Source of the DNA: Candidatus Omnitrophota bacterium
GTDB taxonomy: Bacteria; Omnitrophota; Gorgyraeia; Zapsychrales; Zapsychraceae
NCBI GenBank assembly: GCA_015233405.1
Contig: JADFXT010000005.1
Location: 74,210 to 138,209, forward strand
Reading direction: 5' to 3'
DNA length: 64,000 nt
Below are positions 3,558-31,000 of the stretch, one piece after another. Position 1 is the stretch's first letter, and each line of letters opens with the position of its first letter. The notes below the pieces were generated by a model, which ran no database searches, was not told the origin of the DNA, and worked only from the letters and a program-made list of their open reading frames with translations. Position numbers and translations under genes: made by a program.

Positions 3558-5594
3558 ATGATTTCCTTCTTGAAACGATTCCAATCTCTGTTATTTTCTT
3601 TTGCTATCATATCCGTCGGATGGATAACCTACGGGCACACCTTAAATTACACATTCCACTTTGATGATGAATTTTTTCTCATCAAAAATCCTGCCATCCG
3701 CCATTTAGCCGACCCAGTGGGGGTCTGGCACTATGATCCTACACGCTTTGTCGCCTATTACTCCTTGGCCATTAATTACGCCATTCATCAATTTCGCTTA
3801 CCTGGTTGGCACATTACGAATATCTTTATCCATATTATTGCCGCACTTGCCGCGTATTGGTTAACGAACCTTTTGCTATCAACTCCTCGGATGGCAGAAG
3901 ATGTCTTAAACCGTCACAAAAAGCTACTTGCATTTTTTGTCGGATTAATTTTTGTCGCGCATCCTGTCCAAACGCAATCCGTTACATACATTTGGCAGAG
4001 ATGTGCATCTTTAGCGACCATGTTTTACCTTTTGTCTTTATGTTGCTATTTAAAAGCGCGACTCACAAACAATCGAAAAAGATTTTTTATTTTAGCCGGA
4101 ATCTTGGCAATGTTAGCATTTTTCACCAAAGAGATGACTGCCACATTGCCTGTCATGATTATTGTCATTGAAGGGACTCTATTTCACTTAACATTTTCTA
4201 AGGTTAAAACTACATTTTTAAGACACCGCAATATTTTCATTGTATTAGCAATTCTTCTTTTGTTCTTGCCATTTTTATGCCTGCAAGGCTTTTTCGCTGA
4301 TTATGGCATGAAAGCTCCGTCGGAATCTTTTGACGGAGAATTTATCAGCGGGAAAAATTATCTTATCTCCCAATTCAGGGTTTTATGGACATACATCCGG
4401 CTATTGTTTGTCCCCATGCATCAAAATCTGGACTATGAATATCACGTGTCGAAAAGTTTTTTTGAGCTAAAAACATTTTTAGGATTTGCCGGTTTACTCC
4501 TGATCATTTTTGGAGCCATAAAATTATTTAAAAAGCACCGCTTCTTATCTTTAGGGATATTCTGGTTCTTTATAACAATCTCGATTGAAGGAGGGATTGT
4601 CCCGATTGATTGTCTTATTTATGAACATCGCCTTTATCTTCCCATGTTTGGATATGCTTTATTCCTGGTAAGCGCGTTGTTCACATTATTCCAAGAAAAA
4701 CATTTTAAACATCTCATTATAGGGTTAACCGTTATATCTATGTTCTATGCTGCTGCGACGATAAAACGCAACTTCGTCTGGAAAGATGATTATACGCTTT
4801 GGAGCGATGTCATTAAAAAATCTCCGAACAAACTTCGGGCCTTCAATAATCGCGGAAAGGCCTTGGCGGAAATGGGCAAACAGGAGGAAGCCATTGAAGA
4901 TTTTAATCGGGGCATCGCCATCAATCCTACAACCTGGGCGCTTTATATTAATCGCGGGATTGGCTATCAAACTTTAGGACGATATAAAGAGGCCTACGAC
5001 GACTTTACGAAAGTCATCCAAAACAGCCGTGATGCCCACGCCTATAATTGCCGCGCACAATTGCGTTATGCCATGGGAGATGTCGACGGCGCTATTATGG
5101 ATTTTTCGAGCGCGATCAGTCAAAATCGCCTGCACCTTCAAGCTATTTTGAACAGAGGGACTTTGTACGTCCAGAAAAAACAATATAAATTGGCTCTTTA
5201 TGATTTCACGAATGCTATTTCGCTCGACCCATTTTATGCTCCGTCCTATGAAAATCGGGGAGACGTTTATTACCGACAAGGAAAAACCCAAGAAGCCCTG
5301 AACGATTTCAGCAAGGCGATCGAATTAATGCCTAATGTTCCATTTTTTTATCAAAATCGCGCAGCTCTTTATATGAGCATGGGGTCTGTTGAAAAAAGCC
5401 TATTGGATATTCAAAAAACCATCACCCTTGATCCCTATAATACTAAAGCTTATTTTCAGAGAGGAATCCTTTATTCCCAGAGAAAAGAATATGACAAGGC
5501 CTTAAGCGATTTTATGAATGCCCGCAACCTCGGTTATCCTCTTGATCCCAAAATTTTACCGCAGATAAAAGCTTTAATGAATAAAAATAAATAA
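3558..5594 (+). CDS. polytopic membrane protein with C-terminal TPR array (TMTC / protein O-mannosyltransferase-like architecture)
   Basis: N-terminal ~420 aa with >=9 TM segments and an HFDDEFFLIKNP motif near TM1. C-terminal ~250 aa holds >=6 TPR units (e.g. AFNNRGKALAEMGKQEEAIEDFNRGIAINP). Confidence 0.6.
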   Translation: MISFLKRFQSLLFSFAIISVGWITYGHTLNYTFHFDDEFFLIKNPAIRHLADPVGVWHYDPTRFVAYYSLAINYAIHQFRLPGWHITNIFIHIIAALAAYWLTNLLLSTPRMAEDVLNRHKKLLAFFVGLIFVAHPVQTQSVTYIWQRCASLATMFYLLSLCCYLKARLTNNRKRFFILAGILAMLAFFTKEMTATLPVMIIVIEGTLFHLTFSKVKTTFLRHRNIFIVLAILLLFLPFLCLQGFFADYGMKAPSESFDGEFISGKNYLISQFRVLWTYIRLLFVPMHQNLDYEYHVSKSFFELKTFLGFAGLLLIIFGAIKLFKKHRFLSLGIFWFFITISIEGGIVPIDCLIYEHRLYLPMFGYALFLVSALFTLFQEKHFKHLIIGLTVISMFYAAATIKRNFVWKDDYTLWSDVIKKSPNKLRAFNNRGKALAEMGKQEEAIEDFNRGIAINPTTWALYINRGIGYQTLGRYKEAYDDFTKVIQNSRDAHAYNCRAQLRYAMGDVDGAIMDFSSAISQNRLHLQAILNRGTLYVQKKQYKLALYDFTNAISLDPFYAPSYENRGDVYYRQGKTQEALNDFSKAIELMPNVPFFYQNRAALYMSMGSVEKSLLDIQKTITLDPYNTKAYFQRGILYSQRKEYDKALSDFMNARNLGYPLDPKILPQIKALMNKNK

Positions 5595-5784: not shown

Positions 5785-5985
5785 ATGGCTAAAGGTAAAG
5801 TAAAATGGTTTAGCAACCAAAAAGGCTATGGCTTTATTACCCCTGAAAATGGCAAAGATGTATTCGTCCATTTTTCAGCGATTCAAGGTGAAGGTTACAA
5901 ATCCCTTGAAGAAGGACAAGAAGTGGAATTCGAAATCACTAAAGGTCCTAAGGGCGAACAAGCTACAAACGTTACTAGAATATAA
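5785..5985 (+). CDS. cspA: cold-shock protein, CspA family
   Basis: [15 protein letters not shown] (RNP1) and VFVHFSAI (RNP2) motifs. 66 aa. Strong RBS ggaaaggagg upstream. Confidence 0.95.
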
Positions 5986-6023
5986 TCATTAGGTTAAACC
6001 TAATTTTATTCTTAAAAGAAAAT

Positions 6024-13771: not shown

Positions 13772-14200
13772 ATGTCCGTTTTAACATCATCCATGCCGAA
13801 GAATTGGAGTAAAAAACAACAGCATGTTTGGAAATGCCTGGAAGACCATTGGGATCATCTGATTCATGCCAGAGTGGATGAATTTCTAAAATATATTCAC
13901 GACGATTTTATCGGATTCGGACATGAGAGCCCAATTAATATTGACAAGCCTTGGCTTGGAAAATGGGTAGGTTTCTGGACAAAATCCACAGAGATTGTTA
14001 TCTGCGAACTAAGGCCCATTGATATTAAAATTCATTCGGATATCGCGATATTGCAATACTTTATATTCACGATTGAAAAGAATGACCACGGTGGCAAAAG
14101 AGTGATTCGCCGCTATACAATGACTTGGAAGAAGGCTGGAGATATCTGGCAGGTTATCGCAAGCCATAATAACCTGATGGACGAGATTATCCGAGGATAA
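13772..14200 (+). CDS. small NTF2-like (SnoaL/DUF4440-type) protein, tentative
   Basis: 142 aa with a cone-fold-like pattern ending …TMTWKKAGDIWQVIASHN. RBS aaaggaggg upstream. Confidence 0.4.
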   Translation: MSVLTSSMPKNWSKKQQHVWKCLEDHWDHLIHARVDEFLKYIHDDFIGFGHESPINIDKPWLGKWVGFWTKSTEIVICELRPIDIKIHSDIAILQYFIFTIEKNDHGGKRVIRRYTMTWKKAGDIWQVIASHNNLMDEIIRG

Positions 14201-14216
14201 TATTTTTTGCAAGCGC

Positions 14217-14245
14217 TTGCAAAATGCTAAATCATAGTATATACT
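14217..14245 (+). promoter_or_regulatory. candidate promoter of a structured leader or small RNA
   Basis: TTGCAA (14217-14222), 17-nt spacer, TATACT (14240-14245). The -35 lies inside a perfect 20-bp palindrome, TTTTGCAAGCGCTTGCAAAA (14205-14224). Confidence 0.4.
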
Positions 14246-14269
14246 TATAACAGATAATAAAATTTTATT

Positions 14270-14392
14270 AGTCGTGATGGGGGCATTTTATTATTGATGA
14301 CTGAGTACCATTAACGACTTTTGCTCTTAAACGGGTATCATTGAAAATCAAGCCACGGTTTTCGTTCTAAGCGAAAAGTCGTGGCTTTTTTG
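14270..14392 (+). ncRNA. structured leader (riboswitch- or attenuator-like) ending in an intrinsic terminator upstream of the two-component genes
   Basis: P1 stem 14270-14280 / 14308-14319. Terminator stem 14351-14364 / 14372-14386, followed by TTTTTTGTTG. Segment 14314-14324 (ACGACTTTTGC) can instead pair with the terminator 3' arm (14371-14382). Confidence 0.35.
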
Positions 14393-14438
14393 TTGTAAAA
14401 GCAATACAATGGAATAGAAGAGAAAAGAGGGCCTTAAA

Positions 14439-15572
14439 GTGGAAATAAAGTTAAACGATCCTTTACGGGTTCTTATAATTGAAGACAACCAAGTCGATCA
14501 GGCAATCTTAGTTGCTATGATTATGGAAGAGTCTAAGGGACGCTCTTTTGTTCAAACCGCAGACACTATCCAAGCAGCTCTAAATCTCCTTAATTCTTAT
14601 GAATTTGATGTTCTAACCTTAGATTTAAACCTTCCTGACTCTCAAGGCGAAAAAACAATTCAAGATATCACGAAGAAAGCCCCCAAAGTTGCCATTGTTG
14701 TGAGCACAGGCTCTTATGAGGATGAACTCGGCATAAGAACCTTAAGCATCGGGGCACAGGATTTTCTTATAAAGGGAAAATATAATGGGTACACGTTAAA
14801 CAAAGCCCTTTATTATGCCATCGAAAGAAAACGTTTAGAGCGCGAACTGTTCAGCCTCTGTGAAGAAATCAAAGAGACACAAAACCAGCTTATTCAAATA
14901 GAAAAAATGCAGCTCATCGGAACTCTCGCGAGCGGAGTCGCTCATGAGGTGCGGAATCCTTTAGCCACGGTATTGTATGGGGTCAATTATCTTTATAATC
15001 GAGTTGAATCGGACGATGCGAGCATTAAAAATGTCATGGATAGCATCCGAGAAGCTGCCGAAAAAGCGAACAATATCATTACGGACCTTTTAGACTTTTC
15101 CTATATCAACCAATTAAACAAAGTGGAATCCAATCTTAATGACGCTGTTAAAAAATCTTTGTCCTTAACCCATCATCATTTCCAAGAAAGACACATCCAG
15201 GTCATAGAAAAGCTCAGCAGCGATCTGCCGACGGTGATGGTTGACGTCAATAGGGTTGTTCAGGTGTTGGTTAATCTTCTGATGAACGCTGTTCATGCCA
15301 TGCCAAAAGGCGGAAAGATCACCATTCGATCTTTAAGAGACCCGGACGCGGACGATACTGTTCTTATTCAGGTTGACGATGAGGGACACGGAATTGAAGA
15401 GAAATATTTAAGTAAAATTTTTGACCCATTTTTTACCACGCGCAGGTCTCAAGGCGGGGTGGGATTAGGTCTTTTTGTTTGTCAAAATATTATGAAACTT
15501 CATGACGGAGGAATTTTTCTAAAGAATCGCCTGGAAGGAGGTGCCAGAGCAACGCTGACATTTAAAATTTAA
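14439..15572 (+). CDS. hybrid receiver-histidine kinase (REC-HisKA-HATPase_c), no TM segments
   Basis: REC: VLIIEDN…DVLTLDLNLPD. H-box SGVAHEVRNPL, N-box LLMNAVHAM, G-boxes DDEGHGI and GGVGLGL. GTG start with RBS aaagaggg. Confidence 0.85.
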   Translation: MEIKLNDPLRVLIIEDNQVDQAILVAMIMEESKGRSFVQTADTIQAALNLLNSYEFDVLTLDLNLPDSQGEKTIQDITKKAPKVAIVVSTGSYEDELGIRTLSIGAQDFLIKGKYNGYTLNKALYYAIERKRLERELFSLCEEIKETQNQLIQIEKMQLIGTLASGVAHEVRNPLATVLYGVNYLYNRVESDDASIKNVMDSIREAAEKANNIITDLLDFSYINQLNKVESNLNDAVKKSLSLTHHHFQERHIQVIEKLSSDLPTVMVDVNRVVQVLVNLLMNAVHAMPKGGKITIRSLRDPDADDTVLIQVDDEGHGIEEKYLSKIFDPFFTTRRSQGGVGLGLFVCQNIMKLHDGGIFLKNRLEGGARATLTFKI

Positions 15573-15638: not shown

Positions 15639-16022
15639 ATGTCAACGAAAAGAATCCTTGTTATTGATGATGAAAAAGGGTTTACGGCCATGCTCAAATT
15701 GAACCTCGAATCGACAGGGAAATATGAAGTCCTTATTGAAAACGATTCGCAGAACGCCGTGCATACAGCCTTAAATTTTATGCCTCATCTTATCCTTCTG
15801 GATATCATTATGCCGAACATGGAAGGGCCCGATGTGGCGATAGCGCTACAAGAAAATCCATTATTAAAGGACATCCCGGTGGTTTTCTTGACGGCAACTA
15901 TCAGGTCAAGCGAGGTCGGAGATCAAGGAAGCCGTATTGGAGGACACTTTTTTGTTGCAAAACCAAGCTCTCTTGATGTTTTGGTTCATTCCATAGAAGA
16001 GAATTTGGTTATGTTAAATTAA
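15639..16022 (+). CDS. single-domain CheY-like response regulator
   Basis: ILVIDDE…LILLDIIMPNMEGPDV…PVVFLTA…KP receiver motifs. RBS aaaggagg. Confidence 0.85.
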   Translation: MSTKRILVIDDEKGFTAMLKLNLESTGKYEVLIENDSQNAVHTALNFMPHLILLDIIMPNMEGPDVAIALQENPLLKDIPVVFLTATIRSSEVGDQGSRIGGHFFVAKPSSLDVLVHSIEENLVMLN

Positions 16023-16216
16023 TTTTGACAGGATTTATAAAGAACCCCTCCAGCCACGGAGACTCTTTCCGTATTACCTCGTAAGCCCCAATTTGCCATG
16101 TTTAGAAACGACCCGCCTCAAGAAACACTATCAACAACCCCTTAAAAACATTTCTTGCCCCGTGCCCTTGTTTTTTCCAAATTATATGCTATCTTTTCTC
16201 TAATCTTTGTATATAC

Positions 16217-16340: not shown

Positions 16341-17534
16341 ATGGAAAACGTTCTACCCAAAAGACAGAAAAACTTCTTCATCAAAATCGTGTCGACAATT
16401 CTCTCGATCACGTTCATTTCCACAACGGCCGTACCGCCGAGCTATGCACAGGTTTTGAACCTTCCGCAGCCGGGCAGCATGGTGGGCCTCACGCCTGCAT
16501 TTATGCCTACGCTGATCAAGGGCTTAAAAGTCCATCCGGAGAATCCGCTTTTGTTCGATTTCATTCTCGATACCGGTAAATCCGGTATTGGAGTCAACAC
16601 TCCTGAATTCAAGTCCGAATCTGAAAAGCTCATCAAATATTTCCTAGCGTCAATGACGATCAAAGAGTCTGATTTGTGGGTCAACTTGTCACCGTACGAA
16701 AAGAATAGAATCGCGACTGACGAATTAGGCAAGACTGAGCTTGGAAAAGACATGTTGGCGCAGGACTATATTCTAAAGCAATTGACCGCGTCTTTAATGT
16801 ATCCAGAAAAAGAGATCGGGAAAGATTTCTGGAATAAAGTTTACGCTGAAGCGAAACAAAAATTTGGAACCACTGATATTCCTACAGACACGTTTAATAA
16901 AGTCTGGATCGTCGCTGATAAAGCGAAGATTTTTGAACACAACGACGCGGCGTATGTTGTTGGGGCGCATTTAAAGGTCATGCTAGAAAAAGACTACGTA
17001 GCAGCCAGTAAAGCTTCTTCCAGTCATTCCACAATCTCCCCATTGTCATCCCCGCAATCTTTAAGCGGGGATCCAGTAGTGGATTCCCGCCTTCGCGGGA
17101 ATGACATCAGTACTTCGATTATTAAAGAAATAATCATCCCCGCCATCGAAAAAGAAGTCAACGAAGGGAAGAACTTCGCAACATTAAGACAGATGTTCTA
17201 TTCGATGATTTTAGCGACGTGGTACAAGCAGGCGTTAAAAGATGCATTATTAAATCAAGTTTACAGTGACAAAGCTAAAATTGGCGGAGTTACAAATAAC
17301 GACCCAAATATTAAAGAAAAGATTTACGCCCAGTATTTCGAAGCCTTTAAGAAAGGCGCCTACAACTATATTAAAGAAGAATACGATCCTACGACACAGC
17401 AAGTAACACCTAAAAAATATTTCTCCGGCGGTCTTGAAATCGGCGTCGGGAAAGTCCTCGCCCGTCAAGCTATTCAAACCCCGGAAACCGACAACGCCAT
17501 GAAACCAAATGGCGACATGGCGATGGTAACGACA
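16341..17534 (+). other. shared N-terminal domain, copy 1 (~398 aa), ending in a double junction DNAMKPNGDMAMVTT
   Basis: Near-identical protein sequence to 23774-25027 (LPQPGSMV-LTPAFMPTLIKGLKVHPENPLLFDFILDTGKSG…), except for one 40-aa cassette and a 17-aa insertion in copy 2. Confidence 0.85.
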
Positions 17535-20500
17535 AATATCCATAATTTGAAGCAGATCAAGGCAGATGTGAAGAAAAACCAGGAAATGAAGAAAAAAAAT
17601 AATAAAAAAAGAGGATTATATTCCGCCCTTTCGGATGTCAAGTTTTTGGGTGGAGATTCAGCTGTTGTTAAAAAAGCTTTTAATGGAAATGTCTCAGCTC
17701 GACAAGAATTGGTTGATAGTGCCCGTTATAGATTTGCTATAGACGGCATCTCGAGAAGAAACTGGGCAGGTGAAGTCCTTTCTACTTTTGCACGTTCTGG
17801 CCATGTCTGGGCTCAAAATGCAATTGTCAGGGATGCCAAAGATGACTCCGATGATGATATGCGCTGGGCGAAGTTTGCTTTGTTCGATAGTGCTAAGCAT
17901 GGTTGGGACTGGGCCATCAAACAGGTTGCGATTTTGTCAGGCGATGATGAGGAGTTTCGGGAAGTAATAAGCAAAAAGCTTAATAGTGATAACCGTGGCA
18001 GCCAAGAGGAAGTGGAAGAAATCTTGATCCAGGCCATTCGTAACGGGCAGGTGTGGGCGAAGGATCTGGTAACGGAGAATATTGTGTCAAGGCATGAGTA
18101 CGTAGGGATTCATGTCGCGGCTGAAACTTATGAATTCTTTTCCAAAACGCAACAGAAGAAGATTTATCCTAAAATTAAATCATATTCCGATGAGCTGAAT
18201 AAGCTCAATAAACGGCTTCAGGGATTGGAAAAACAAGGGAAATCCCTCGACCGTGCCATGACGACCCTGTTGGTGATTCCTGCGTCGGAATCTGCGCACA
18301 TGACATTGAAAGAACTTTTTGATTTACTGCAGGAAGGAATTAAGAAGAACCAAGACAGGGGTGTCACGGAGGCTGAAGGAAAGTACCAGGGCATGAATTT
18401 TAAGGTCGTTATGGATACGACCTTAGGTGAAGATTATGAAAAATCTTTCAGGCCTAGGTTTGAAGAGAAATTGAAGAAGAACGATATCCAAAAAGACAAG
18501 GCCATGACGACGGAAAGAAAATCGACCTGGGACCAGGTCAAGGCATTTACACCAGGCACGGTGGATTGGCATATCAGACATCTTTTTCCGCAGTTTTCAG
18601 CAAAAGGAAAAATCCGGGCTATTAAGATCCTATCTAGAATTTACGAAAAGAATAATCCTAAACAGCAGGCCAGGATCGCTCAGGCATTGTTTGAGGTGGC
18701 AGGGAATAAGGACAGTTCTGTCTCCCAGGCCGCGGTCGATGCTATTGCTTCTAAATTAAAAGTAACGGGCATAGAAGATCCATTAAAACAGTTACTGAAC
18801 GGACTTCGGAATCAGGCTGGCGTTGATGTGGGCAAAGACCGTCTCCTGACGACGGCTGATGCCCAGATAAAGATTAAAGCCTTTGTCGCGTCGATGAAGG
18901 GCCTGCTTATTGCTCCGTTTGTTAATAACTCGACGATGGCAACACTTGCGGAGTTTGCGAACAACGTCGAGAAAGATGTGTACTCAGCCAAAACAAGGGC
19001 TGATTGGAAAAGAATATCTGAACGCCTGGCACAGGACAAGTCAAGAATAACAGGGTTCATAGAGGCAATAGCAGGGCGTGAGCCGCAATCCGTGTTTTCT
19101 TATGATAATTTCCTCAAAGAACAATTGAGAAAAGAAATGTACACGGCTTTTCAAGGCATTATTTCCGAGGCTGGGGAAGCCATGGATCGGCCCACAAACG
19201 CGATACTCATCAATGCCAGCGAAAGATCTCTACAAAATAATCCCCTGCGATTGTCTCTTCTTCCCGGCGAGGGTGTTGTTTTGAATGTTTCATCACATGC
19301 ATGGCAAGGATATTATCGTCATCACTCTTTTCTTTTATCGGCGGACAAAGACGGTAATTTGCTGGCAAGTCCTTTCAAGTTACCGAGCTTTCTTTCTAAA
19401 GATTATGATGGTAGGACGCGGCAAATGGACTACGAGACATTCTACGACAGTTTCCAAATCTATTTACCTCATGGCCTGACTTTGTGGCACTCTGATGGAT
19501 TCTCTGAAGATGCTGATGCTGGAATTATACACAACCAAGGCCCTACAGGGGCAAATTTAGCTATTGACAAGAATGGTAAAGATTTATTGCTATCGGTTGG
19601 TGATTATACGAGTTCACCAGGTAGTTTATCGGCAGGTGTCAACAGTATTGTTCTTCCCAAGGAAAAGGAAATCGTCCTCGGCAACGGAACGGATGTTGTC
19701 CATGTTACCTTAGACAAAGAGAAGACGAAAGAAGTCCAGATGGGCGGGGATACGGTCGTCCTTGAGGAGAAAGATGATTATGTTTTGGTAAGCAGTCATA
19801 TCAAAGACGGAACTATCTGGGCGGGCGTTGTCGACGAAGGGACTCCGGATGAGATCCTGGCTGCTCTGGACAAGGGCGAGCAATGGGCCTTGGATATTTT
19901 AGACAGGGATTTGGCAAAGAATGCAAACTTAGAGAAGGTGGCGTATATTTTAGATGCCGGTATTCAGAACAACAGGGATTGGGCGAAAAAGAGAATTATC
20001 GGACGCGATTTAAACGGCCAATATAGGTTACAACAGGTCGTGAAAGACCGCTATTATTCCGGCGGCGCAGAAGGGAAATTTTCCTGGTTGAAGGACGTAA
20101 TTATTGAGAACGCAAAGTTACCCGGCAATGATTGGGCGAAGGAAATAGTTTTTGGAAAAGAAGACAGTCAATTGATGCGCCTGGAAAATCTGCTTATCGA
20201 TGCCCGTAAAAACGCCCAGAGCGCTCAATCGTTTTCTGAGAAGATCCGCCATGTCATATTAAATGGGCATGATGATTCGGATTATGTTGTGATGGGCATG
20301 GCTATGGCAGATGCTTACGCCGGCCTGACATGGATGGTCAATCCGATGATTGAATGGCTTCAAGATAATTTCGATAATCGGGAACGCCTGGATGTAGCCG
20401 TCGCCGTTGTTTTTTCTCTCCTTCCTCCGGAAGTGAGGGAGAAAATTTTTAAGGATTTAGAACAGACAGATCCGAAAGGATTATCAAGCCTTCGCCGGGT

Positions 20501-23500
20501 GATCTCCGCGTTTTCTTCAGACCTGCTGAATAAGCAGAGATCAATGATAGTGAACCGATACAGTGATTCAGTGAATGGGCCTAGGTGGTCTTGGGGTGAC
20601 GACGGCAGCAAAGGCCTTTCGATGGAATCGCGTGAGAACCATAAAGCTACGATACAAGCAGCCCAATCTATCACCAACAAAGAACTTGCTCTGACAGAGA
20701 TTATTAAGAAATCTTCTTTGGCATCTGTCTACATGGGCCAGCGCATTGGGATGAGATACAACTCCCTAGCTGCCCGCGGCGACTTCGCCATGACGACGGA
20801 ACAACCGGAGAACCAATCACGCAGAAATTTTCTTAAGAATAGTGCTGTCATAACGGCCGGATTGCTTGCCGGAAAAGGGATGCTGTTGGCTCAGGCTATT
20901 AAACCCAACCTCCGCCCTGAAGTAAAAAAGACCGTCGAATGGTTAAAGCATAAAATTAATCCCCAGACCGGTCTCATTGCCTCTTTTGAAGGAACTCCTG
21001 CAGGCGACCCTTCAACTGGAGTAACTTGGATGTATAACCAAGCACAAGCTATTGAAGTGTTTTTGTCGATCGGAGATATCAAGACAGCGGAAAGTCTTGC
21101 CAAAGCCATGCTAAAACTTGAAAAACACAACGGTGCATGGGTCGGCGCTTATGATACTCAGTCCGGAAAGATCGCTACAAATATCGACGAGCAAAGACTT
21201 AGCTATGTTGGTTTTAACATGGCTATCGGGCATTCATTTCTAAACCTTTTGGAAAAGACCCAAGACAAGAAATTGGCCATCAATTTGTTGCAAGCTTCTT
21301 TTGGATTGATGCGTTGGATCGCGGGTTATTATCATGATAAGGGAAACTATGGATACTTTTCCGGCGGAGAAAACAAAGCCGCTGTCTGGACGGAATATAA
21401 CGTACGTGCAGCTGCTTTTTATTATCAATTTGCTAACCAGCTTAAAGACCCCAACCATCCGAATAAGAAAGCGATTGAAGAGATCATATCACCTGATAGT
21501 TCAAAACCTTTAAGTGAATCTCTCCGAAAGGATGCAGAGAAGGTTTTCCACTGGGTATCCGGAATGTGGAACAAAAATCAAGGATACTATGAATATGGCT
21601 ACACGGATTCTGTAAAAGAAAAATTGATCCCAGAAGATTGGGGTAATTTTGAAAAGGAAAATCCTAAATATTGGGCGCATGGCATGTGGGCTTATCCCCA
21701 ATATCTTGTTCCTATTATGGCAAGGGTCGCCGGATTAAATCCAAAGGATTATGCCGGAGGGCTCGGTTGGGTCCTCAATCATCAAAGCACGATCGTGGTC
21801 AATAAAAATGGCCAGAAGGTCAATCTTTCCGGCGTGCCACGATGGATCGGTTCGAGATCTATTAATTCGAAATTCACCGGTGAAATGGCGGTTGCCTTGA
21901 GGTTAGTCGGCAGGGACCTTGAAGCCGATAAATTGTTGGCAACATTGACTCAATTACAGACACCTGATGGCGGTATTCCCGAGGCTGTCAGTGATAATCC
22001 TAACGACATGTGGCCGCTCAGCTTTCCCTATGCTTCTGTGGAGGCGTCATTGGCTTATATCATTGGCATGCAGCACTTAGACCCGAGATATATCGCTGGC
22101 ACAACCCAGTTGGCTGGAAACGACGACGCTGCCATGACGACGGCAACGGTCAAAGTTTTGGGAGAAGATATGCCTGCCAGATCAGTCTTGAAAACCATTA
22201 GTGCGTTGCAGCAGGATTTGCTTTTCTCTAATATCACAGACGAGCGCAACACCTTGAATGAATTGGTCTATGGACGGAAGATGATCCGGTTAAATCATTT
22301 CACTCAGCGCGCCAAGGAAAGTCCTGTCGCTGATTATAATTTGTTCCGCGAGCTTGAAAAATTTTTAAAAGATACAGTTTCTTTTGATATTGCGATTTTG
22401 CCCTTAAACGGCACGCCGAGCTTAAATGGATTTCGTCCGGGCTTTTATCTGAATTGGAAGGCCCCCAACGAGAAGATGACTCAAAAAATGATGATGTCCG
22501 CTCAACTATGGCTTCTGAATAAGGCCCTTGAATCTCAGAAGGCTTTAAAAGGGGCCGGGATATCCGACTTCGCGATGACGACGGGGGATAATTCGACTTC
22601 TAGCTGGGAAGAACGACAGCTTGCTTGGGAGGAACGCATCCGACAACGAGACGAAGAAGAGCGACGGAACCAGAGAAGGCACCAAGAAGCGCAAGCGGAT
22701 TATGAAAATCTCGCAATGAATTTGTTTGGAGAAGATGATGCCATGATGACAGGGAACCTAAGAGTGCTGTCATTCATAGGTGCACTGACGGGCAGTTTGC
22801 TTTTTACCGGTCAAGGAATGGCAGCGAACGATCCTTTGGCGAGCTGGATAGATCCGAAAGCCGATTCCATGGAAATTTCGTCGACAAAAATGGGATATTA
22901 TGTAGGACAAACTATACGCCAGGATGGGAACACATACATATGGAATTCAAACGTTAACAAGTACGTTCCTTTGAAAAGAACGCCCAAGAAACCTGCAGCA
23001 GACACTAGCAACACGCATAAAGACACGACTGCTGTTGTGCCTGATAGCAGTAAGAAAGCAAAAGACCAGGCCATGACGGCGGGGGACGACGATTTTGACA
23101 GCTTTTTGCGCGCCAACAGAATGAGAATGGAGACAAACGAAACACGGGAAATCACAGTAAAAAATGTCTTAGGAATACACATGAAACCCTCGAGAGCTAT
23201 CTATCGAGCGGCAGAAGCGTTTGCCAAGCAAGGCGTCTTTGTCGCCATTGAAACTGAAGGAGATTTTGTGAGAATTTATGATGAATCTGAGGCAGAGCTG
23301 ACCATGCATATTCAAGGTTTAGGTATTCAAGATGAACAACCTATAATGGTAACCATAGATAGCAAGAAGAAATTGTCGCCGGAAACGATCAATTTTGTGT
23401 TTGATAGATTAACGTATTTGTTGCAAACTCCGGCATTGCTTGAAAATCCAGAATGGGATACAAACAATGCAACAAAGACTTATTTGGCAGAGATCACGCA

Positions 23501-23774
23501 ATTTCTTGAATCACATGACAAGGCCATGAACGCTGATATGAAGAACCCCGGCGGTATCGACTTAAACGCTAAGAATCTTCAGATGAATATTTCTAAAGAT
23601 GGAAAAGGCGTTGAATTCAAATTCGATCCGGCTATGGTGGAGCAATTTAAACTCGGAGATTTTACAGGCGTGATACCCGTCATCATTCGTATTACGCCAA
23701 TTTCAAGCCCGTTTCCGCTATTAGGATTAGAAATTCCGACGGAACAGGCAATAGAAATATCTAAAAGGTCTTAA
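16341..23774 (+). CDS. giant modular secreted protein 1 (2477 aa): signal peptide + shared N-domain, 8 junction-delimited modules, shared C-domain
   Basis: Uninterrupted 7.4-kb ORF with RBS gaggag upstream. N-terminal signal peptide …TTAVPPSYAQ|V. N- and C-terminal regions are paralogous to the next ORF. The interior is punctuated by D-x-A-M-T-T. Confidence 0.85.
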   Translation: MENVLPKRQKNFFIKIVSTILSITFISTTAVPPSYAQVLNLPQPGSMVGLTPAFMPTLIKGLKVHPENPLLFDFILDTGKSGIGVNTPEFKSESEKLIKYFLASMTIKESDLWVNLSPYEKNRIATDELGKTELGKDMLAQDYILKQLTASLMYPEKEIGKDFWNKVYAEAKQKFGTTDIPTDTFNKVWIVADKAKIFEHNDAAYVVGAHLKVMLEKDYVAASKASSSHSTISPLSSPQSLSGDPVVDSRLRGNDISTSIIKEIIIPAIEKEVNEGKNFATLRQMFYSMILATWYKQALKDALLNQVYSDKAKIGGVTNNDPNIKEKIYAQYFEAFKKGAYNYIKEEYDPTTQQVTPKKYFSGGLEIGVGKVLARQAIQTPETDNAMKPNGDMAMVTTNIHNLKQIKADVKKNQEMKKKNNKKRGLYSALSDVKFLGGDSAVVKKAFNGNVSARQELVDSARYRFAIDGISRRNWAGEVLSTFARSGHVWAQNAIVRDAKDDSDDDMRWAKFALFDSAKHGWDWAIKQVAILSGDDEEFREVISKKLNSDNRGSQEEVEEILIQAIRNGQVWAKDLVTENIVSRHEYVGIHVAAETYEFFSKTQQKKIYPKIKSYSDELNKLNKRLQGLEKQGKSLDRAMTTLLVIPASESAHMTLKELFDLLQEGIKKNQDRGVTEAEGKYQGMNFKVVMDTTLGEDYEKSFRPRFEEKLKKNDIQKDKAMTTERKSTWDQVKAFTPGTVDWHIRHLFPQFSAKGKIRAIKILSRIYEKNNPKQQARIAQALFEVAGNKDSSVSQAAVDAIASKLKVTGIEDPLKQLLNGLRNQAGVDVGKDRLLTTADAQIKIKAFVASMKGLLIAPFVNNSTMATLAEFANNVEKDVYSAKTRADWKRISERLAQDKSRITGFIEAIAGREPQSVFSYDNFLKEQLRKEMYTAFQGIISEAGEAMDRPTNAILINASERSLQNNPLRLSLLPGEGVVLNVSSHAWQGYYRHHSFLLSADKDGNLLASPFKLPSFLSKDYDGRTRQMDYETFYDSFQIYLPHGLTLWHSDGFSEDADAGIIHNQGPTGANLAIDKNGKDLLLSVGDYTSSPGSLSAGVNSIVLPKEKEIVLGNGTDVVHVTLDKEKTKEVQMGGDTVVLEEKDDYVLVSSHIKDGTIWAGVVDEGTPDEILAALDKGEQWALDILDRDLAKNANLEKVAYILDAGIQNNRDWAKKRIIGRDLNGQYRLQQVVKDRYYSGGAEGKFSWLKDVIIENAKLPGNDWAKEIVFGKEDSQLMRLENLLIDARKNAQSAQSFSEKIRHVILNGHDDSDYVVMGMAMADAYAGLTWMVNPMIEWLQDNFDNRERLDVAVAVVFSLLPPEVREKIFKDLEQTDPKGLSSLRRVISAFSSDLLNKQRSMIVNRYSDSVNGPRWSWGDDGSKGLSMESRENHKATIQAAQSITNKELALTEIIKKSSLASVYMGQRIGMRYNSLAARGDFAMTTEQPENQSRRNFLKNSAVITAGLLAGKGMLLAQAIKPNLRPEVKKTVEWLKHKINPQTGLIASFEGTPAGDPSTGVTWMYNQAQAIEVFLSIGDIKTAESLAKAMLKLEKHNGAWVGAYDTQSGKIATNIDEQRLSYVGFNMAIGHSFLNLLEKTQDKKLAINLLQASFGLMRWIAGYYHDKGNYGYFSGGENKAAVWTEYNVRAAAFYYQFANQLKDPNHPNKKAIEEIISPDSSKPLSESLRKDAEKVFHWVSGMWNKNQGYYEYGYTDSVKEKLIPEDWGNFEKENPKYWAHGMWAYPQYLVPIMARVAGLNPKDYAGGLGWVLNHQSTIVVNKNGQKVNLSGVPRWIGSRSINSKFTGEMAVALRLVGRDLEADKLLATLTQLQTPDGGIPEAVSDNPNDMWPLSFPYASVEASLAYIIGMQHLDPRYIAGTTQLAGNDDAAMTTATVKVLGEDMPARSVLKTISALQQDLLFSNITDERNTLNELVYGRKMIRLNHFTQRAKESPVADYNLFRELEKFLKDTVSFDIAILPLNGTPSLNGFRPGFYLNWKAPNEKMTQKMMMSAQLWLLNKALESQKALKGAGISDFAMTTGDNSTSSWEERQLAWEERIRQRDEEERRNQRRHQEAQADYENLAMNLFGEDDAMMTGNLRVLSFIGALTGSLLFTGQGMAANDPLASWIDPKADSMEISSTKMGYYVGQTIRQDGNTYIWNSNVNKYVPLKRTPKKPAADTSNTHKDTTAVVPDSSKKAKDQAMTAGDDDFDSFLRANRMRMETNETREITVKNVLGIHMKPSRAIYRAAEAFAKQGVFVAIETEGDFVRIYDESEAELTMHIQGLGIQDEQPIMVTIDSKKKLSPETINFVFDRLTYLLQTPALLENPEWDTNNATKTYLAEITQFLESHDKAMNADMKNPGGIDLNAKNLQMNISKDGKGVEFKFDPAMVEQFKLGDFTGVIPVIIRITPISSPFPLLGLEIPTEQAIEISKRS
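17045..17105. repeat. GC-rich double-hairpin palindromic element (type A), inserted in frame in giant gene 1
   Basis: GTCAT-CCCCGC-aatctttaa-GCGGGGAT…ATTCCCGC-cttc-GCGGGAAT-GAC: two hairpins bracketed by GTCAT/ATGAC. Translated as …SSPQSLSGDPVVDSRLRGND…. Related arms recur at 56113-56204. Confidence 0.75.
20790..22133 (+). other. module with canonical Tat signal peptide followed by an alpha-helical-repeat (possibly alpha/alpha-toroid, glycosidase-like) domain
   Basis: Starts at the junction Met: MTTEQPENQSRRNFLKNSAVITAGLLAGKGMLLAQA|IKP. This has the S-R-R-x-F-L-K motif, an h-region and A-x-A. The assignment of the mature part is by helix-repeat pattern only. Confidence 0.6.
22743..23072 (+). 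other. module starting with a Sec-type signal peptide
   Basis: Junction Met, then MMTGNLRVLSFIGALTGSLLFTGQGMA|AND. Confidence 0.5.
23073..23525 (+). other. module containing an HPr-like (PTS phosphocarrier fold) domain
   Basis: EITVKNVLGIHMKPSRAIYRAAEAF… parallels the HPr active-site segment (G-[IL]-H-A-R-P-A, His15 retained). …LTMHIQGLGIQDEQPIMVTIDS parallels the HPr LG-x-x-x-G-x-x-[IV] strand. The Ser46 equivalent is not conserved. Confidence 0.45.
23526..23771 (+). other. shared C-terminal domain, copy 1 (82 aa)
   Basis: MNADMKNPGGIDLNAKNLQMNISKDGKGVEFKFDPAMVEQFKLGDFTGVIPVIIRITPISSPFPLLGLEIP… is paralogous to 34193-34426. Confidence 0.8.
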
Positions 23775-25027
23775 TGAAAAATAACATCAATAAACATATT
23801 ATTTCACAGAGGCAAACGGTAAAAAGAATCATTTCCGCGGCTATTCTTGTCGCGTTTATATTCACAACTGTTATACCGCCGAGCTATGCACAAGTTATGA
23901 ACCCCGCCGCGATTGGCGGCGAGGCCTCGCCAACTTCACTGGTTGGCGGGTTGCCGCAGCCGGGCAGCATGGTGGACTTAACGCCTGCGTTTATGCCTAC
24001 GCTCATCAAGGGCTTAAAAGTCCATCCGGAGAATCCGCTTTTGTTTGATTTCATTCTCGATACCGGTAAATCTGGCATTGGAGTCAACACTCCTGAATTC
24101 AAATCCGAATCCGAAAAGCTCATCAAATATTTCTTAGCGTCCATGACGATCAAAGAATCCGATCTTTGGGTTAACTTGTCTCCGTACGAAAAGAATAGAA
24201 TTGCGACTGATGAATTAGGTAAAACAGAGCTTGGCCGTGACATGCTCGCGCAAGATTATATTCTCAAACAGCTCACGGCCTCGCTTATGTATCCAGAAAA
24301 GGAAATCGGAAAAGATTTTTGGAATAAAGTTTACGCTGAAGCGAAACAGAAATTTGGAACTACTGATATTCCTACGGACACGTTTAATAAAGTCTGGATC
24401 GTCGCAGATAAAGCAAAAATTTTCGAACACAACGATGCAGCCTATGTTGTCGGGGCGCATCTTAAAGTAATGTTGGAAGAGGATTACGAAGCGCTCAAAG
24501 CGAGCGCGGAGTCCCGAGCTACTGCGAGGGATTTGGCGGCTTCACATAATGTAGGGGCGGGGTTTCCCCGCCCTGATCATAAAGGGCGCGGTAACCGCGC
24601 CCCTACGGCGATCATCAAAAAAATCATCATCCCCGCCATCGAAAAAGAAGTCAACGAAGGAAAGAATTTCGCGACGCTTCGCCAGATGTTCTATTCGATG
24701 ATTTTAGCTACTTGGTATAAACAAGCCTTAAAAGATGCACTTTTAAATCAAGTTTACAGTGACAAAGCTAAAATTGGCGGAGTTACAAATAACGACCCAA
24801 ATATTAAAGAAAAGATTTACGCCCAGTATCTCGAAGCCTTTAAGAAAGGCGCCTACAACTATATTAAAGAAGAATACGATCCTACGACACAGCAAGTAAC
24901 ACCTAAAAAATATTTCTCCGGCGGTCTTGAAATCGGCGTCGGGAAAGTCCTCGCCCGTCAAGCTATTCAAACCCCGGAAACCGACAACGCCATGAAACCA
25001 AATGGCGACATGGCCATGGTGACGACC
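23774..25027 (+). other. shared N-terminal domain, copy 2 (~418 aa)
   Basis: Paralogous to 16341-17534, with an extra MNPAAIGGEASPTSLVGG after the signal peptide. Ends DNAMKPNGDMAMVTT. Confidence 0.85.
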
Positions 25028-28000
25028 AAGTTGGATAAAAATATCGACCGTGCTATGACCTCAATGGAAAGACGCGAGTTCCTTAGCGCCTTAGGTGGGC
25101 TTGTTACGGCAGGTGCGGTTTTGGGTGGTGGTGGATTTTTGGTTTACAAAGGGGTGCGTGCGGTAGACAAGATAGCGAAGCAGGAAGAAGAAAAATTTTC
25201 AAAGGAGTGGAATGAATTTGTTAAGACCCCTGAAGGGCTTAGGATCCAGAAGATGGTGGATGCATATTGGGCGGAGATCAAAATGCCCTATTATCGAGGA
25301 ATCCCAGACTTGAAGGAATATAGAGGGAAGCTGGCGGCGGCAACGATCATCACCGATAAAAAAATAACCACTCTTGTGGATGCTTTCCGCTATACATCCA
25401 GTGCCATAAGTATGTTAGGGACCCCTCTGCTTGACGACAAGCTGAGCACTCGAATGGCCATGGTTTCGGTATCGTCCGGCAAGGATATAGGGTTATTTGT
25501 AAAGGCCTATCAATATATAGACGATAAGAACACCAACAGCACTCTGGGCCTCCACCAAGAGTCGATGGTGGATATAGCGGTTGCTGCAGTCACAACAGGT
25601 AAAGACACCCAGGCTTTTCTCAATGCATACAGGTTTATGAAAAGCTATGATAAATTTCGGGCTGCATCCGGTGAGTCATCGGCGGTGCAAAGAGCGATTA
25701 CCGCGGTCACAACAGGAAAAGACCTGGAGGCATTTGCCAAAGCGTTCGAGTACATGACAAACTATAATAATGTTGGAACTAATATTAATGACGAATTGGC
25801 GGCGCAGATGGCGGTTGCAGTAGTCGCAACGGACAAAGCCCCCGAGGCATTGGCCAAGGCGTTCAGGTATATAAAAAACACTGGGCTCAGCGATGAATTA
25901 GCGGCGCAGATGGCGGTTGTTGCAGTCACAACGGGCAAAGATCCTGAAGCATTTGCCAAAGCGTTTAGGTATTCAAAAGACAACGTGCCGCCCGATTTTC
26001 TTATCAGTGATGAAATAGCGGCAGAGCTGGCGGTTGTTGCAGTCACAACGGGCAAAGACATAGCGGATTTTGTAATGGTTTTTCAATATATGAAAGGATA
26101 CGAGAATGGAACCAGCCCTCTTAGTGACGAATTAGCGACGCGGATGGCTATTGCCGCGATCCTCTCAGGCAAGAATAAAAAGGCCTTTGTGGAGGCCTTC
26201 AAGTATTTGCAGGACGGCGAAAACCAGCTGTTCTATCTCAACGATGAAGGCCGCGTACAGATGGCTATCGCCTCCGTCGTTACAGGCAAGAACATAAAAG
26301 CATTTGCGACTGCATACCGATATGTGAATGATCAAGTGGGGAGCCATGGCATCCTAGATGATGGTTTGCTGATCGTACGAATGGTCATTGTCGGGATGGC
26401 CCCCGAATTCTTTAACAAAGATCTTACTGGCGTAGATTCACTTAACGAATCGTTAGGCCCTGTGGCAGGAAGCATTCTTGGTGCTGTTTTTCTTGGAATG
26501 CCAGTGCTAGGAGCTATTCTAGGTGGCGGTTCTCTTGGCGGGGCAGCCATCGGGTATTTGATCGCGGGCCCGATTGGCGCGCTTTTGGGAGCTATATTAT
26601 TGGCGGATGATTATAAGGAGAGACCTGATAATTGGAGCGATCTGGCTAATCTTCATGCTCTCCAGAAGGTAACGGCGAGTCCGGCCACGCGTAGCGTTAA
26701 TGCTGATAAAGCCATGGGCGCCGAGTTGTCCGACCACGCTATGGTCACGCCAGGCCTAAATAGTTACTTCAATTACTCGGAAAAATTGAAAATATCAGGC
26801 GGGGACCTTGAGACATTGGCCCAAAAGTTCGCACTATATTTAGATAAAGTCGTAAATAACAAATACAGAAAAATGCCTTATCGATACTTGCCAGATCAAT
26901 GGCAAAAACGATTAAATGGCATCAACGAATTCTTGCTACGCACGCCGTTATACCAAGGGAAACTTCAAGACGGAAGTCCAATCTATCAATATATGATCGT
27001 ACCTCTTTTTAACCTTAACGGCGTTAAATCGATTGGCGCGATGATTGAGCCTGGTGATGGTCGGTCTTCTCCGCATCACTATATTTATTTAGGGATAGAG
27101 CCATATCTTTTAAGCGTCGAAGACCCCAAGATCCTTATCAATGCCGTGCTTGATCAAATTAAGGTCAACCAAAATGATTCTTCATCTTATAAGGCCTGGA
27201 GAAATTATTATACCCAAGGGCTTTTAAGTGAAGTTGAAGAAGCCGACAAGGCCATGACGGCGGATAGGGAAAAGGATGCGACAACAGAGGTCCTCACACA
27301 AGAAGATCTAAATGAGTTGATCCGCCTCATAGACGAACACGATGATATCCGTTTTGACACGAGTAATGCGGTAAAGGCGATAGAATTGCGTCAGCCTGAA
27401 ATTGTTACGCGCTTTGAAAGGGATTTGGATGAGAACAGAAGGTGGTTAGCACAGGCGGTAGTTGAAGGCCTTTTGAATAATAAAGAATGGGCCCGCAAAG
27501 CTGTGGCCGAGCATGGCCTTATGAATCAATCTAATTTTCGAGAGATTTTAGATAGTGCGCTTGATATGAGAAAAGTGGAGGCCCTGAAAGTTTATTTGTG
27601 GAACAGACAATGGTTTGTTGATGTGGTTGTGCAGGAAGTCAAAGCGTCCCCAAAAGGGGCACAAGACTTTCTATACAAACTCTTGGAGGATAATAATCAT
27701 GGAGACAACTGTTTCTGGGCTTGGGAGGCCGTACTTGCTTTGGCACGAGAAGGAAATGCTTGGGCAAAGGACACTCTTTTTTCTTGGGCAAAAAGTTACT
27801 CGACATCATCTTATTATTCCCCAGAAGATTTAGCCATAAAAATGGCCAGACAGATAATATTGATGGAAGCCTATGCCGGTCAGTCATGGGTAGGTGATTT
27901 AAAAGATGTGTCGGATGTCATAAAGAATGAAAAGGCACCTGAACATCCTATTTTGCGAGAAAGATCAGAGGGCATAAGCCCGACGATCTTTGAGTCATTT

Positions 28001-31000
28001 ATGGCACCTGAGCTTCATATTTCGCCCGAAGAGTCAGAGTATTATTTTAAGGCCCTTGGCGTGACAAAGGCGTCATACAATGTTTTGCAAAAGGCCATAA
28101 ACAAGACAATGCCTGATGCTATAAACAAGGCGATGTCTGAGGAAAGGGAAAAGGCCACAAAGATACAAAGATGGCAAAACAAAATCAGCAAGAAAAAAGC
28201 GCTGGAGTTTGAAAATACGATAAAAAAACGTGCGATGAAGGACGTCGGCATACAAGCACAGGTCATGAAGGAAGTGATGAATCACTCTTCTTTGGCCGTC
28301 ATTATGATAGCGAGACAAAACATAGAAGACTATGCCCAAAAAGATAATCGTGGTAACGAAAGGGGATTTGGAGATTATGTTGGAGGACATTATGGTGGAG
28401 GATATCGTGAAGGAAATTCTGATGAAGGAAGCCGCACTTCGAGTGGAGACTCTGGTTGGTCTATAACAGGCTTGGGTGGACTTTTAAATCCTGCCAATCC
28501 TCTGAGTCCTTTGAGTCCATTGAATATGATGGACCTTGCCATGACGGCTGATGCCAATTTAACCGAGACTGATGTCGTCCGCGTCGCGGGCAATGAAGGG
28601 TCTTTTGAAGCGGAATATCATGAGAAGCCAACGGTCGTCGTGCTGGCGCCGGGAAGAGCCAATGGGGATGGAGAGCATGTCGATTACCCCACATTTAGAA
28701 TCTATACAAGTCCCGACGGCTCAGCCACCATCATTCCGCACAATTATTCCGCGCCGATCGCCATTCAAAACAATATTTTAATCTCGGCCAAACCCAGGAC
28801 CGATAATAAAATCGTGGCTTGGGCGAAAGATTACAAAACCAGATATGAATTTGATCTCAATGATTTAGAAAAATTGACGAAATCCGACAGTTTAAAAGGT
28901 GATAAATTCTGGGCGAATTATTTACTTGGAGCTTATCAAATCGCTAAAAATCAAGGCCGTTCATTTAAAGGCGCGGAATTTGTCATAGAAGGAAATGTCC
29001 CAACGTCCGGCGGCGTATCTTCCTCGTCGGCTTATAGTGTTGCTTTAAGCATTGCGTTCTCGCAAATGTTTGGTTGGAATTTACATAACAGCAAAGTCGG
29101 GAAAGTCGAATTAGCTTTGTTTGCCCGCGATGCCGAACGTTCAGAGTTGGTTGGTTCAAGCTGCGGATATCTGGACCAATTAGCGTCGATCTTCGGGAAG
29201 AAGGACCATATCACGTTGATCGATTACGGCGAAGTTCCTGTTTTCCTCGAAAAACTGGAGAAAGGTTTAGCTACCGATGCCGACGTCGACCGATTAATTC
29301 AAAATATCTCTATGAAGCCGGTCTTGGATAAAGGCTATAAGTTTATGTTGTTTAACAGTAACGTCGAGCGTCCCGCTGGAGGACTTGGCGCGACCAATTA
29401 TAATGTCCGGGCAGATTATGAATTACCGGAGGGGGGAAGAATATTATCCGCGTTACTGGGGACTGCCTGGGCGCCACATGTCAGTGCGTATACATTGGCT
29501 GATTTAGAACGCGTAAAATCGCAATGGCCGACGGGTGATTATACTTATGTGGATAAAAGAGATGGCAAGACATACACCGTCAGCTACGCGACGATCTTTA
29601 AACGTGTCCGTTATGTCTTAGGTGAGAAAGAACGAACCTTGGCCTTTATCGCAGCGGCCAAAGTTGGAGATGTTGAAGCTATGATGCGGGCGCTTAATGC
29701 AACTGGCGACGGGCTAATGATGGACGGTGATTTTCAAATCAGCGCTTATGTGGATAAAGACGGAAACGTCTTGGACGACACCTTGGACATATTAGTGAAG
29801 GTTTTACGTGAAAACGGGGCAGCAGCCCGCATGATGGGCGGCGGGGGCGGCGGCTCTGTTATCCTTTTGGTGAAGAAAGAATTTGATACGCCCGAATGGC
29901 GCCAGAAGATCATCGACGAAGTTAAGCTACGCAGCAAGACCCATAAAGTCGTATCTGTTATCGGCGACGTCATCGCCTCCGAAGGCGCGCGGGTCGTCAA
30001 AGAATCCCCTGATAAAGCTATGGTAGCAGAAACTCAGGTGGAGACGTTTTTTGATCTCCCCGTTGATATAGAAAATGTTGGGGACATCTTAAATGATATC
30101 CTTCAAGAAAAAGGCAAAAAATCTTGGACGGGCTTGGCAAAAGAAGCTCTTAACCAACCTCAAAAAGAAAAAAAATCCTCTGCATTTTCTCTTCTTTATA
30201 TACAAAGAAGAGATGGGAGAAGGGAAAGCATCCCTTTAAGCAGCAACTTTCTCATCCGAATGGCATTAAAAAAAGTTATATCTAAAATATTGGACAAATA
30301 TGCTTCCCGACATGAAAAAAGAAGATTTCATATCGCCGTCTATAAAGAACCTGGAGAAAATGGATATTTTGATTTAGTTATAGTCCCACAAGAGCCATTT
30401 GTTTTTCCGGAACCTCAAGTCCTGAATTTTATGCGGAATACTTTTGTCACTAAATGGCTTGATGAAAATGGCAATCGACTATTGTTCATTGATTCTCTAA
30501 AATATAATTTAAAGAAAGCAAAAGCTCCACGAGCAGATCATCCAGAAGAGATTGTCTCTTTTATTCAGAAAACATTCGATGGCCGTGTTCCTGTTAAGCT
30601 TAATGAAAGCAATAATTTTGTATTTGGCGACGAGAATTTATCCCTGGAAGTGAATTCAGATTCTTATGCAAAAGACTTTTCCCCTAAACTTGAATCTGCG
30701 ATTGAGCAAGCGTTGGAAGCTCATAGGGAATTTGAATCCATTTCCGGACTACTCACCTATTCCGATAATGCGATGTTGACTCATAGATTCACGAGTTTTT
30801 TGACAAAACCATTCTTATTAATGGCCTTAGCATCAACTTTGGGAGCAGCGCCGAGTTTGAATGATTTGAACTTAAAGAAACAGGTCAATCCGCTTGAACA
30901 ATTAAGCAATGAAGATTTACGTAGACAAACGAACCTGCGAAAAGATGCAAATATTTTCTTTGAAGTAGCCCGACGCGCTTCTCAATATAAAGACAGCAGC

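Follow-up and report, generated by a model that had tools for sequence, protein, structure and literature searches.

The stretch of DNA analysed here (64 kb, referred to as the window) belongs to a metagenome-assembled genome of Candidatus Omnitrophica, and the histidine kinase encoded in it was 100% identical to a Candidatus Omnitrophica protein in a protein search. The element described in the following occupies a 238-nt gap leading from a DUF4440 gene to this kinase gene. The operon upstream of it comprises genes for a phosphorylase, a PilZ protein, a HIT protein and the DUF4440 protein, while a response regulator gene and two giant open reading frames are located downstream of the kinase gene. 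No RNA-binding domain is encoded by the neighbouring genes, for which Pfam returned REC, HisKA, HATPase_c, DUF4440, HIT and PilZ. The features of the locus, in window coordinates, are:

13772–14200, plus strand: DUF4440/SnoaL-like gene (Pfam)
14205–14224, no strand assigned: perfect 20-bp palindrome TTTTGCAAGCGCTTGCAAAA, overlapping the −35 hexamer (palindrome scan of the window)
14217–14245, plus strand: sigma-70-type promoter P1, with −35 hexamer TTGCAA (14217–14222), 17-nt spacer and −10 hexamer TATACT (14240–14245) (consensus match and relatives)
14255–14270, no strand assigned: perfect 16-bp A/T palindrome TAATAAAATTTTATTA, covering roughly +4 to +19 of the predicted RNA (palindrome scan)
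14270–14319, plus strand: P1 hairpin, 14270–14280 paired with 14308–14319 (11 bp), enclosing a variable 27-nt insert (folding)
14313–14326, plus strand: segment AACGACUUUUGCUC, complementary to the terminator 3' arm at 14370–14383 (pairing energy)
14350–14391, plus strand: predicted intrinsic terminator, with hairpin (14350–14386) and T-run (14386–14391) (folding and relatives)
14350–14358 with 14378–14386, plus strand: base of the hairpin, AAGCCACGG paired with GUCGUGGCU, invariant across ten loci
14423–14441, plus strand: ribosome-binding site AAAAGAGGG (14423–14431) and GTG start codon (14439–14441) of the kinase gene (sequence)
14439–15572, plus strand: gene of a REC-HisKA-HATPase_c hybrid histidine kinase, 377 aa (Pfam)
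15639–16022, plus strand: gene of a REC-only response regulator, 127 aa (Pfam and protein search)
16050–16072, plus strand: second copy of the invariant 5' arm, CCAGCCACGGA (16050–16060), followed by UCCGU (16068–16072) (motif search)
16341–23774 and 23774–34429, 3' of the REC gene: two giant open reading frames of 2477 and 3551 aa

Hundreds of relatives of the kinase, with about 50% identity, were found in the protein search. Loci for comparison were collected by protein searches with the kinase and the REC protein, by contig look-ups and by one metagenome scan. The scan of metagenome contigs with the kinase alignment added two orthologous loci (L083 and L084) among the matches listed; a kinase scan of genome contigs returned only distant paralogues with at most 46% identity, mostly from Nitrospira. 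The closest protein relative (P0002 at 73%, P0121 at 93%) and P0004 were left out of the DNA comparison. Ten other distinct loci with an orthologous kinase and REC pair were obtained, the closest of them being L167 (67% kinase identity to the window).

In nine of these ten loci (L167, L082, L083, L084, L163, L164, L165, L174 and L175) a unit of promoter, leader and terminator was found in the same orientation and at the same place before the kinase gene as in the window. Since it is present here and in nine of ten related Omnitrophota loci, the unit is considered to be real. A comparison of the regions upstream of orthologous kinase genes had been proposed as a check in an initial annotation of this DNA, and it bore out the conservation expected there, with promoter and terminator kept at ten distinct loci. 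The spacing within the unit is variable: the leader measures 21 to 103 nt from promoter to hairpin (about 21 nt in L175), and the gap from the terminator to the kinase start is 29 to 202 nt long (47 nt to the GTG in the window). The order phosphorylase, PilZ, HIT, DUF4440, gap, kinase and REC is common to the window and L167, and AAAAGAG and GTG of the kinase start are kept in the L167 alignment. A DUF4440 gene is also located upstream of the element in L080, L163, L164, L174 and L175; in L165 this position is taken by a HIT gene, and L083 has an unrelated gene there. The genes encoding the 430- and 435-aa kinases of L174 and L175 were called with starts upstream of a second promoter (see below); these calls probably extend too far, and translation is likely to begin at the ATG codons at 2282 and 2279, respectively. 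Two genes upstream of the element, genes for cold-shock proteins (CSD) were seen with sub-threshold Rfam matches to the cspA thermoregulator (L163 1343–1740, L164 1000–1349, L174 1184–1550 and L175 1105–1549; 33 to 65 bits versus a gathering score of 78).

Only in the window are the giant open reading frames found behind the REC gene; in the relatives this place is taken by unrelated genes, for example of the trypsin/PDZ, SET and HAD types. It is hence the kinase and REC pair, and not the giant genes, to which the element is linked. From the earlier description of a two-component pair next to giant genes, the link to the two-component system is thus kept in the relatives, and the giant neighbours are peculiar to the window. 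The second copy of the 5' arm, about 30 nt past the REC stop codon, resembles a truncated hairpin without U-tail. The same 11-mer CCAGCCACGGA lies past the REC gene in L167 (about 3904–3914) and is absent at this place in seven other relatives; it might represent the remnant of a terminator or a site to which the 3' arm of the leader pairs.

Promoter P1 of the window matches the consensus in 9 of 12 positions. Sites of such quality are no more frequent than expected in its surroundings (5 observed between 12000 and 17000, versus 11.9 in shuffled sequences), so that the window match alone is not above chance and the promoter owes its credibility to conservation in relatives. All eleven loci, the window and its ten relatives, carry a −35-like hexamer and a TAnnnT hexamer at the equivalent place, always exactly 17 nt apart, and nine of the eleven have a perfect TTGACA. 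TTGCAA-17-TATACT at 14217–14245, as read in the initial annotation, is retained as a credible promoter, from which transcription is predicted to start near A14250 or A14252. A sigma-54 promoter (TGGC-N-TTG) was considered as well and rejected, GC at −12 being found in L082 only.

Two palindromes lie at the promoter. The 20-bp palindrome TTTTGCAAGCGCTTGCAAAA is the sole one in the whole window with arms of at least 10, against an expectation of 0.08 in Markov-1 random windows; when arms of at least 8 are admitted, TAATAAAATTTTATTA is the only other spacer-less palindrome. The promoter had been described as embedded in the former; the palindrome is indeed perfect at 14205–14224, but it overlaps only the −35 hexamer and not the whole promoter. 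It is not a terminator, since there is no U-tail on either strand. The equivalent region of L167 is not palindromic, and from TAATAAAATTTTATTA only the core AAATTTTA is kept in L167, the palindrome itself being lost. TTTTGCAAGCGCTTGCAAAA is possibly an operator specific to the genome of the window, and judging from their positions both palindromes could be operators flanking the core promoter.

The terminator of the window, comprising the hairpin and a T-run giving six U, folds at −20.3 kcal/mol (z = −5.07), and none of 200 shuffled sequences was as good. The strong intrinsic terminator with U-run noticed earlier is accordingly present; a simple scanner missed it because of a bulged G. A stable G+C-rich hairpin followed by a U-run is predicted in all ten loci carrying the unit, with folding energies of the ten hairpins from −15.6 to −19.3 kcal/mol and a U-rich tail on the plus strand in each of them. 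Apart from the promoter hexamers, the only part common to all ten loci is the base of the hairpin, AGCCACGG(A)/(U)CYGUGGYU. In the aligned hairpins the seven bases GCCACGG of the 5' arm and GUGG of the 3' arm are invariant, and the only variation among the base pairs of this part consists of G-C to G-U changes, while flanks, upper stem and loop are free to vary. A covariance model (R1) built from the ten-hairpin alignment gave 49 to 62 bits at the ten sites and 27 bits for the next unrelated match in a search space of about 1.1 Mb, which included the whole window. The hairpin motif occurs once in the 64-kb window, compared to 0.01 expected occurrences.

The invariance of the hairpin base suggests that something probably recognises it by sequence. 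No peptide accounts for the conservation, because the arm-to-arm distances are not multiples of three; a small protein as its cause was rejected, reading frames and arm distances being inconsistent with it. A GGA site of the CsrA type was rejected as well, as the GGA is paired in the stem, and neither the window nor L167 has it. An identical stem, AGCCACGG...CGTGGCTTTTT, was also seen in at least 100 unrelated viral contigs (including L176 to L255), apparently as an ordinary terminator with a chance resemblance in the stem. The stem sequence is therefore not special in itself, and it is its invariance at the kinase locus that needs explaining.

In L080, the tenth relative, the promoter (TTGACA-17-TATTCT) is intact, the hairpin is decayed and lacks a U-tail, and the leader runs into the kinase gene. 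Judging from its sequence, L080 would amount to a natural terminator loss. In the same region (5788–6000, with the same sequence in L081), a long structure is predicted (z = −2.15), in which an A-run on the 5' side is base-paired to what used to be the U-run.

The leader between promoter and terminator contains the P1 helix, for which 11 bp between 14270–14280 and 14308–14319 had been proposed. The helix was recovered at these positions in both the minimum-free-energy and the centroid fold (pair probability 0.97); it is interrupted by a bulged A (14313) and contains a single G-U pair. Its arms AGUCGU/ACGACU are kept in L167 around a different insert; no equivalent was found in the eight other relatives. 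Further blocks kept between the window and L167 are the −10 hexamer, ACAG at the predicted start, AAATTTTA, AGTCGT and AACGACTTTTG (the latter two being the P1 arms), the terminator, and the ribosome-binding site with GTG. The segment AACGACUUUUGCUC, which overlaps the P1 3' arm, pairs with the terminator 3' arm at −13.9 kcal/mol (p = 0.018 versus shuffled leaders), and a similar complementarity was found in L167 (−16.0 kcal/mol, p = 0.018); owing to the shared ancestry of the two loci this counts as one observation. In the other eight loci the complementarity to the terminator 3' arm was not significant (p = 0.098 to 0.95), and for the 5' arm it was significant in no locus. P1 helix and complementary segment are additions specific to the window and L167.

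From these pairings the initial annotation had derived a riboswitch or classical attenuator, in which P1, an anti-terminator and the terminator form mutually exclusive structures. Besides the conserved P1 helix and the complementarity in both loci, the reading can draw on the 3'-arm AAAGU of L167, which is unpaired in the terminator, yet kept and complementary to ACGACUUU. In thermodynamic modelling of the window, however, the anti-terminator pairing of AACGACUUUUGCUC reached an ensemble probability of about 3e-8, the terminator remained in the best fold with the P1 5' arm forced open, and the AACGACUUUUGCUC partner was not recruited when the terminator 5' arm was blocked. The complementarity of the overlapping segment to the terminator 3' arm thus stands, but its gating by P1 is unsupported. 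An anti-terminator formed with the 3' arm would also be kinetically unfavourable, as this arm emerges after its own adjacent 5' arm; known attenuators use the order opposite to a pairing with the late-made terminator 3' arm. The leader alone is not unusually stable compared to shuffled sequences (z = −0.91 in the window, about −0.9 in L167). No aptamer is conserved either, since the leaders are 21 to 103 nt long and cannot be aligned beyond L167, and the shortest of them leaves only about 21 nt before the hairpin. Rfam 15 gave no matches at gathering scores in the window, and at E-values up to 10 only chance-level matches were obtained for the region in the window and for nine related loci. 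The scan proposed earlier agrees with the statement made then, that the sequence could not be assigned to a familiar riboswitch class.

A conserved anti-terminator excluding the terminator was found neither in the leader test across the ten loci nor in the test of flanking hairpins; in the latter, a local hairpin exposing GCCACGG in its loop, attractive by eye in the window, L082, L163 and L174, found no support in a permutation test (p = 0.20 across loci). A leader-peptide attenuator was rejected too, as the short open reading frames differ in sequence and length (MGAFYY* in the window, MGRPSYGRDV* in L167); these frames share no common peptide, no common frame with the invariant motif and no Shine-Dalgarno sequences. 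Taken together, the results of the Rfam scan, the alignment, the complementarity tests and the ensemble modelling lead to the rejection of riboswitch logic for the ten-locus family. For the window, where P1 and the complementary segment do exist, it is unlikely, and as an overall explanation of the element it is highly improbable.

A transcription unit whose terminator gates the genes behind it, an attenuator in the broad sense, is the explanation placed first here, although it falls somewhat short of probable. Promoter P1 would start an RNA near 14250–14252, most polymerases would end at 14390–14392 to give a short RNA of about 140 nt, and the fraction reading through would express the kinase and REC operon. 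The hairpin base would probably be used by a factor acting in trans, a protein being the likeliest candidate, to set the efficiency of termination or to bind the short RNA. The gaps of L083 and L164 between terminator and kinase start (33 and 41 nt) are in line with such a gate: no promoter-like site fits into them, so that transcription of the kinase gene would have to cross the terminator. The best candidate for a second promoter in the window is poor (GTGGCT-18-TACAAT, 8/12), and that of L082 is weak too. Moreover, the retention of the promoter without a terminator in L080 suggests that the promoter serves the kinase gene. In L174 (2200–2229) and L175 (2182–2211), a common second promoter (TTGAAT-18-TATAAT, 10/12) lies directly after the U-tail, TTCGAA-17-TATAAT follows the terminator in L165, and TGTTATAAT, with an extended −10, follows it in L167 and L084. 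With these second promoters, the kinase gene need not depend on read-through in the five loci. For this reason an independent, trans-acting small RNA gene of about 75 to 140 nt, kept beside a kinase operon with its own promoter past the terminator because both are functionally linked, is nearly as likely an explanation, a serious candidate, though one that falls further short of probable when taken by itself. The earlier remark that the element could equally be an sRNA of about 140 nt is still to be reckoned with, in so far as promoter and terminator of its own predict a discrete short transcript. A very strong promoter combined with a strong terminator is typical of stand-alone small RNA genes. 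The near-consensus promoter and strong terminator in all ten loci, the conservation of the second promoter between L174 and L175, the freely varying 5' part without conserved attenuator logic and a promoter seemingly much stronger than a kinase gene would need are all consistent with it. Neither a conserved single-stranded seed nor a target at the kinase or REC start was found to go with that remark: the only conserved RNA segment is paired in the terminator stem, the leader has no complementarity to the translation start regions of kinase and REC, and the window contains no extra copies or obvious targets except the repeat at 16050–16060, which is shared with L167 only. The lack of room for a kinase promoter in L083 and L164 and the terminator-free promoter of L080 speak against a small RNA gene as well. 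The gated leader is thus slightly ahead, and the two are compatible: an ancestral unit may have produced mostly short RNA with some read-through, with a second promoter added later in some lineages.

Two further explanations were considered. No terminator was seen between the DUF4440 stop codon (14200) and promoter P1, and transcripts from upstream would therefore also stop at the hairpin (14350–14386). That the hairpin is nothing but the terminator of the phosphorylase, PilZ, HIT and DUF4440 operon, behind a promoter look-alike arisen by chance, fits with this and with the unremarkable promoter score of the window, but it is very unlikely, given that the 17-nt-spaced promoter recurs in all loci even where the upstream gene differs (L165 and L083) and that the hairpin sequence tracks the kinase gene and not the upstream gene. 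Similarly, the inverted repeat GCCACGG...CCGTGGC might be read as a DNA operator or activator site of the kinase promoter, both half-sites being invariant and the repeat abutting the −35 hexamer of the second promoter in L174 and L175. This can hardly be expected to hold for an element in which the distance between the half-sites varies from 27 to 32 nt, unsuited to a rigid dimer, in which the inner stems pair as well by unrelated sequences and a U-run always follows on the plus strand, and in which the G-C to G-U changes preserve RNA pairing and break DNA symmetry.

Several known systems resemble the terminator-gated leader or the small RNA gene in part. Intrinsic terminators in leaders are controlled by proteins in the NasR/nasF leader, in the BglG/SacY systems with RAT sites and by ANTAR regulators such as EutV and AmiR. 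The element shares with them the arrangement of promoter, short leader and intrinsic terminator directly before the regulated genes, conserved RNA at or next to the terminator that could be a handle for a protein, and the two-component context. In contrast to these systems, Pfam detected no ANTAR, CAT/PRD or NIT domain among the products of the adjacent genes, although a regulator of this kind may be encoded elsewhere; conservation falls within the terminator stem itself instead of on a separate upstream hairpin, and no alternative hairpin is conserved; the leader of about 21 nt in L175 is too short for the dual-hairpin site of ANTAR proteins. Small RNAs encoded beside regulators are known as well (Qrr1 by luxO, OxyS by oxyR), and SreA and SreB of Listeria are short RNAs that leaders release when transcription terminates prematurely. 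A promoter of its own, a size of 75 to 140 nt, a Rho-independent terminator with U-tail and the conserved linkage to a regulator are common features. Whereas those RNAs possess conserved single-stranded seeds or aptamers, only the base of the terminator stem is kept here, and the element is co-oriented with the kinase gene and lies immediately upstream of it. In the HMP-PP (thiS) riboswitch, conserved nucleotides overlap the terminator stem. Very small size and conservation falling on the terminator hairpin are shared with this riboswitch, but the Omnitrophota element has no Rfam match at any threshold and no conserved upstream partner strand, and the downstream genes encode signalling proteins and not a biosynthetic pathway. 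With ordinary Rho-independent terminators, finally, the hairpin shares the G+C-rich stem, the variable loop and the U-run, as well as the stem occurring in the viral contigs; unlike them, it has a conserved promoter of its own in front, is located upstream of a gene instead of closing one, and keeps an invariant base across kinases that are only about 50% identical.

To our knowledge, the Omnitrophota are an uncultivated phylum whose gene regulation is almost wholly unexplored; a literature search revealed no paper describing RNA elements in this phylum. The element is a new family of a familiar kind, namely a terminator-ended leader or a small RNA, for which no Rfam family or paper was found. 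It provides a concrete candidate for a regulatory RNA, findable by sequence, before one of the most conserved two-component pairs of the phylum. The part actually under selection consists of the promoter and the base of the terminator, and the comparison cautions that alternative pairings reminiscent of a riboswitch, when noticed in a single sequence, can be a peculiarity of one lineage. Should the element prove to be no more than a terminator that leaks or a small RNA of the ordinary sort, the finding would be a routine one. It is possible, although rather unlikely, that AGCCACGG(A)/(U)CYGUGGYU is recognised by a trans-acting factor not described so far, which gates the kinase and REC pair across the Omnitrophota and for which an RNA-binding antiterminator, a protein stabilising the terminator or a partner RNA are candidates. 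If this is true, the element would represent a new phylum-specific family of cis-regulatory RNA, or an RNA with a cis-acting role that also functions as a free small RNA.
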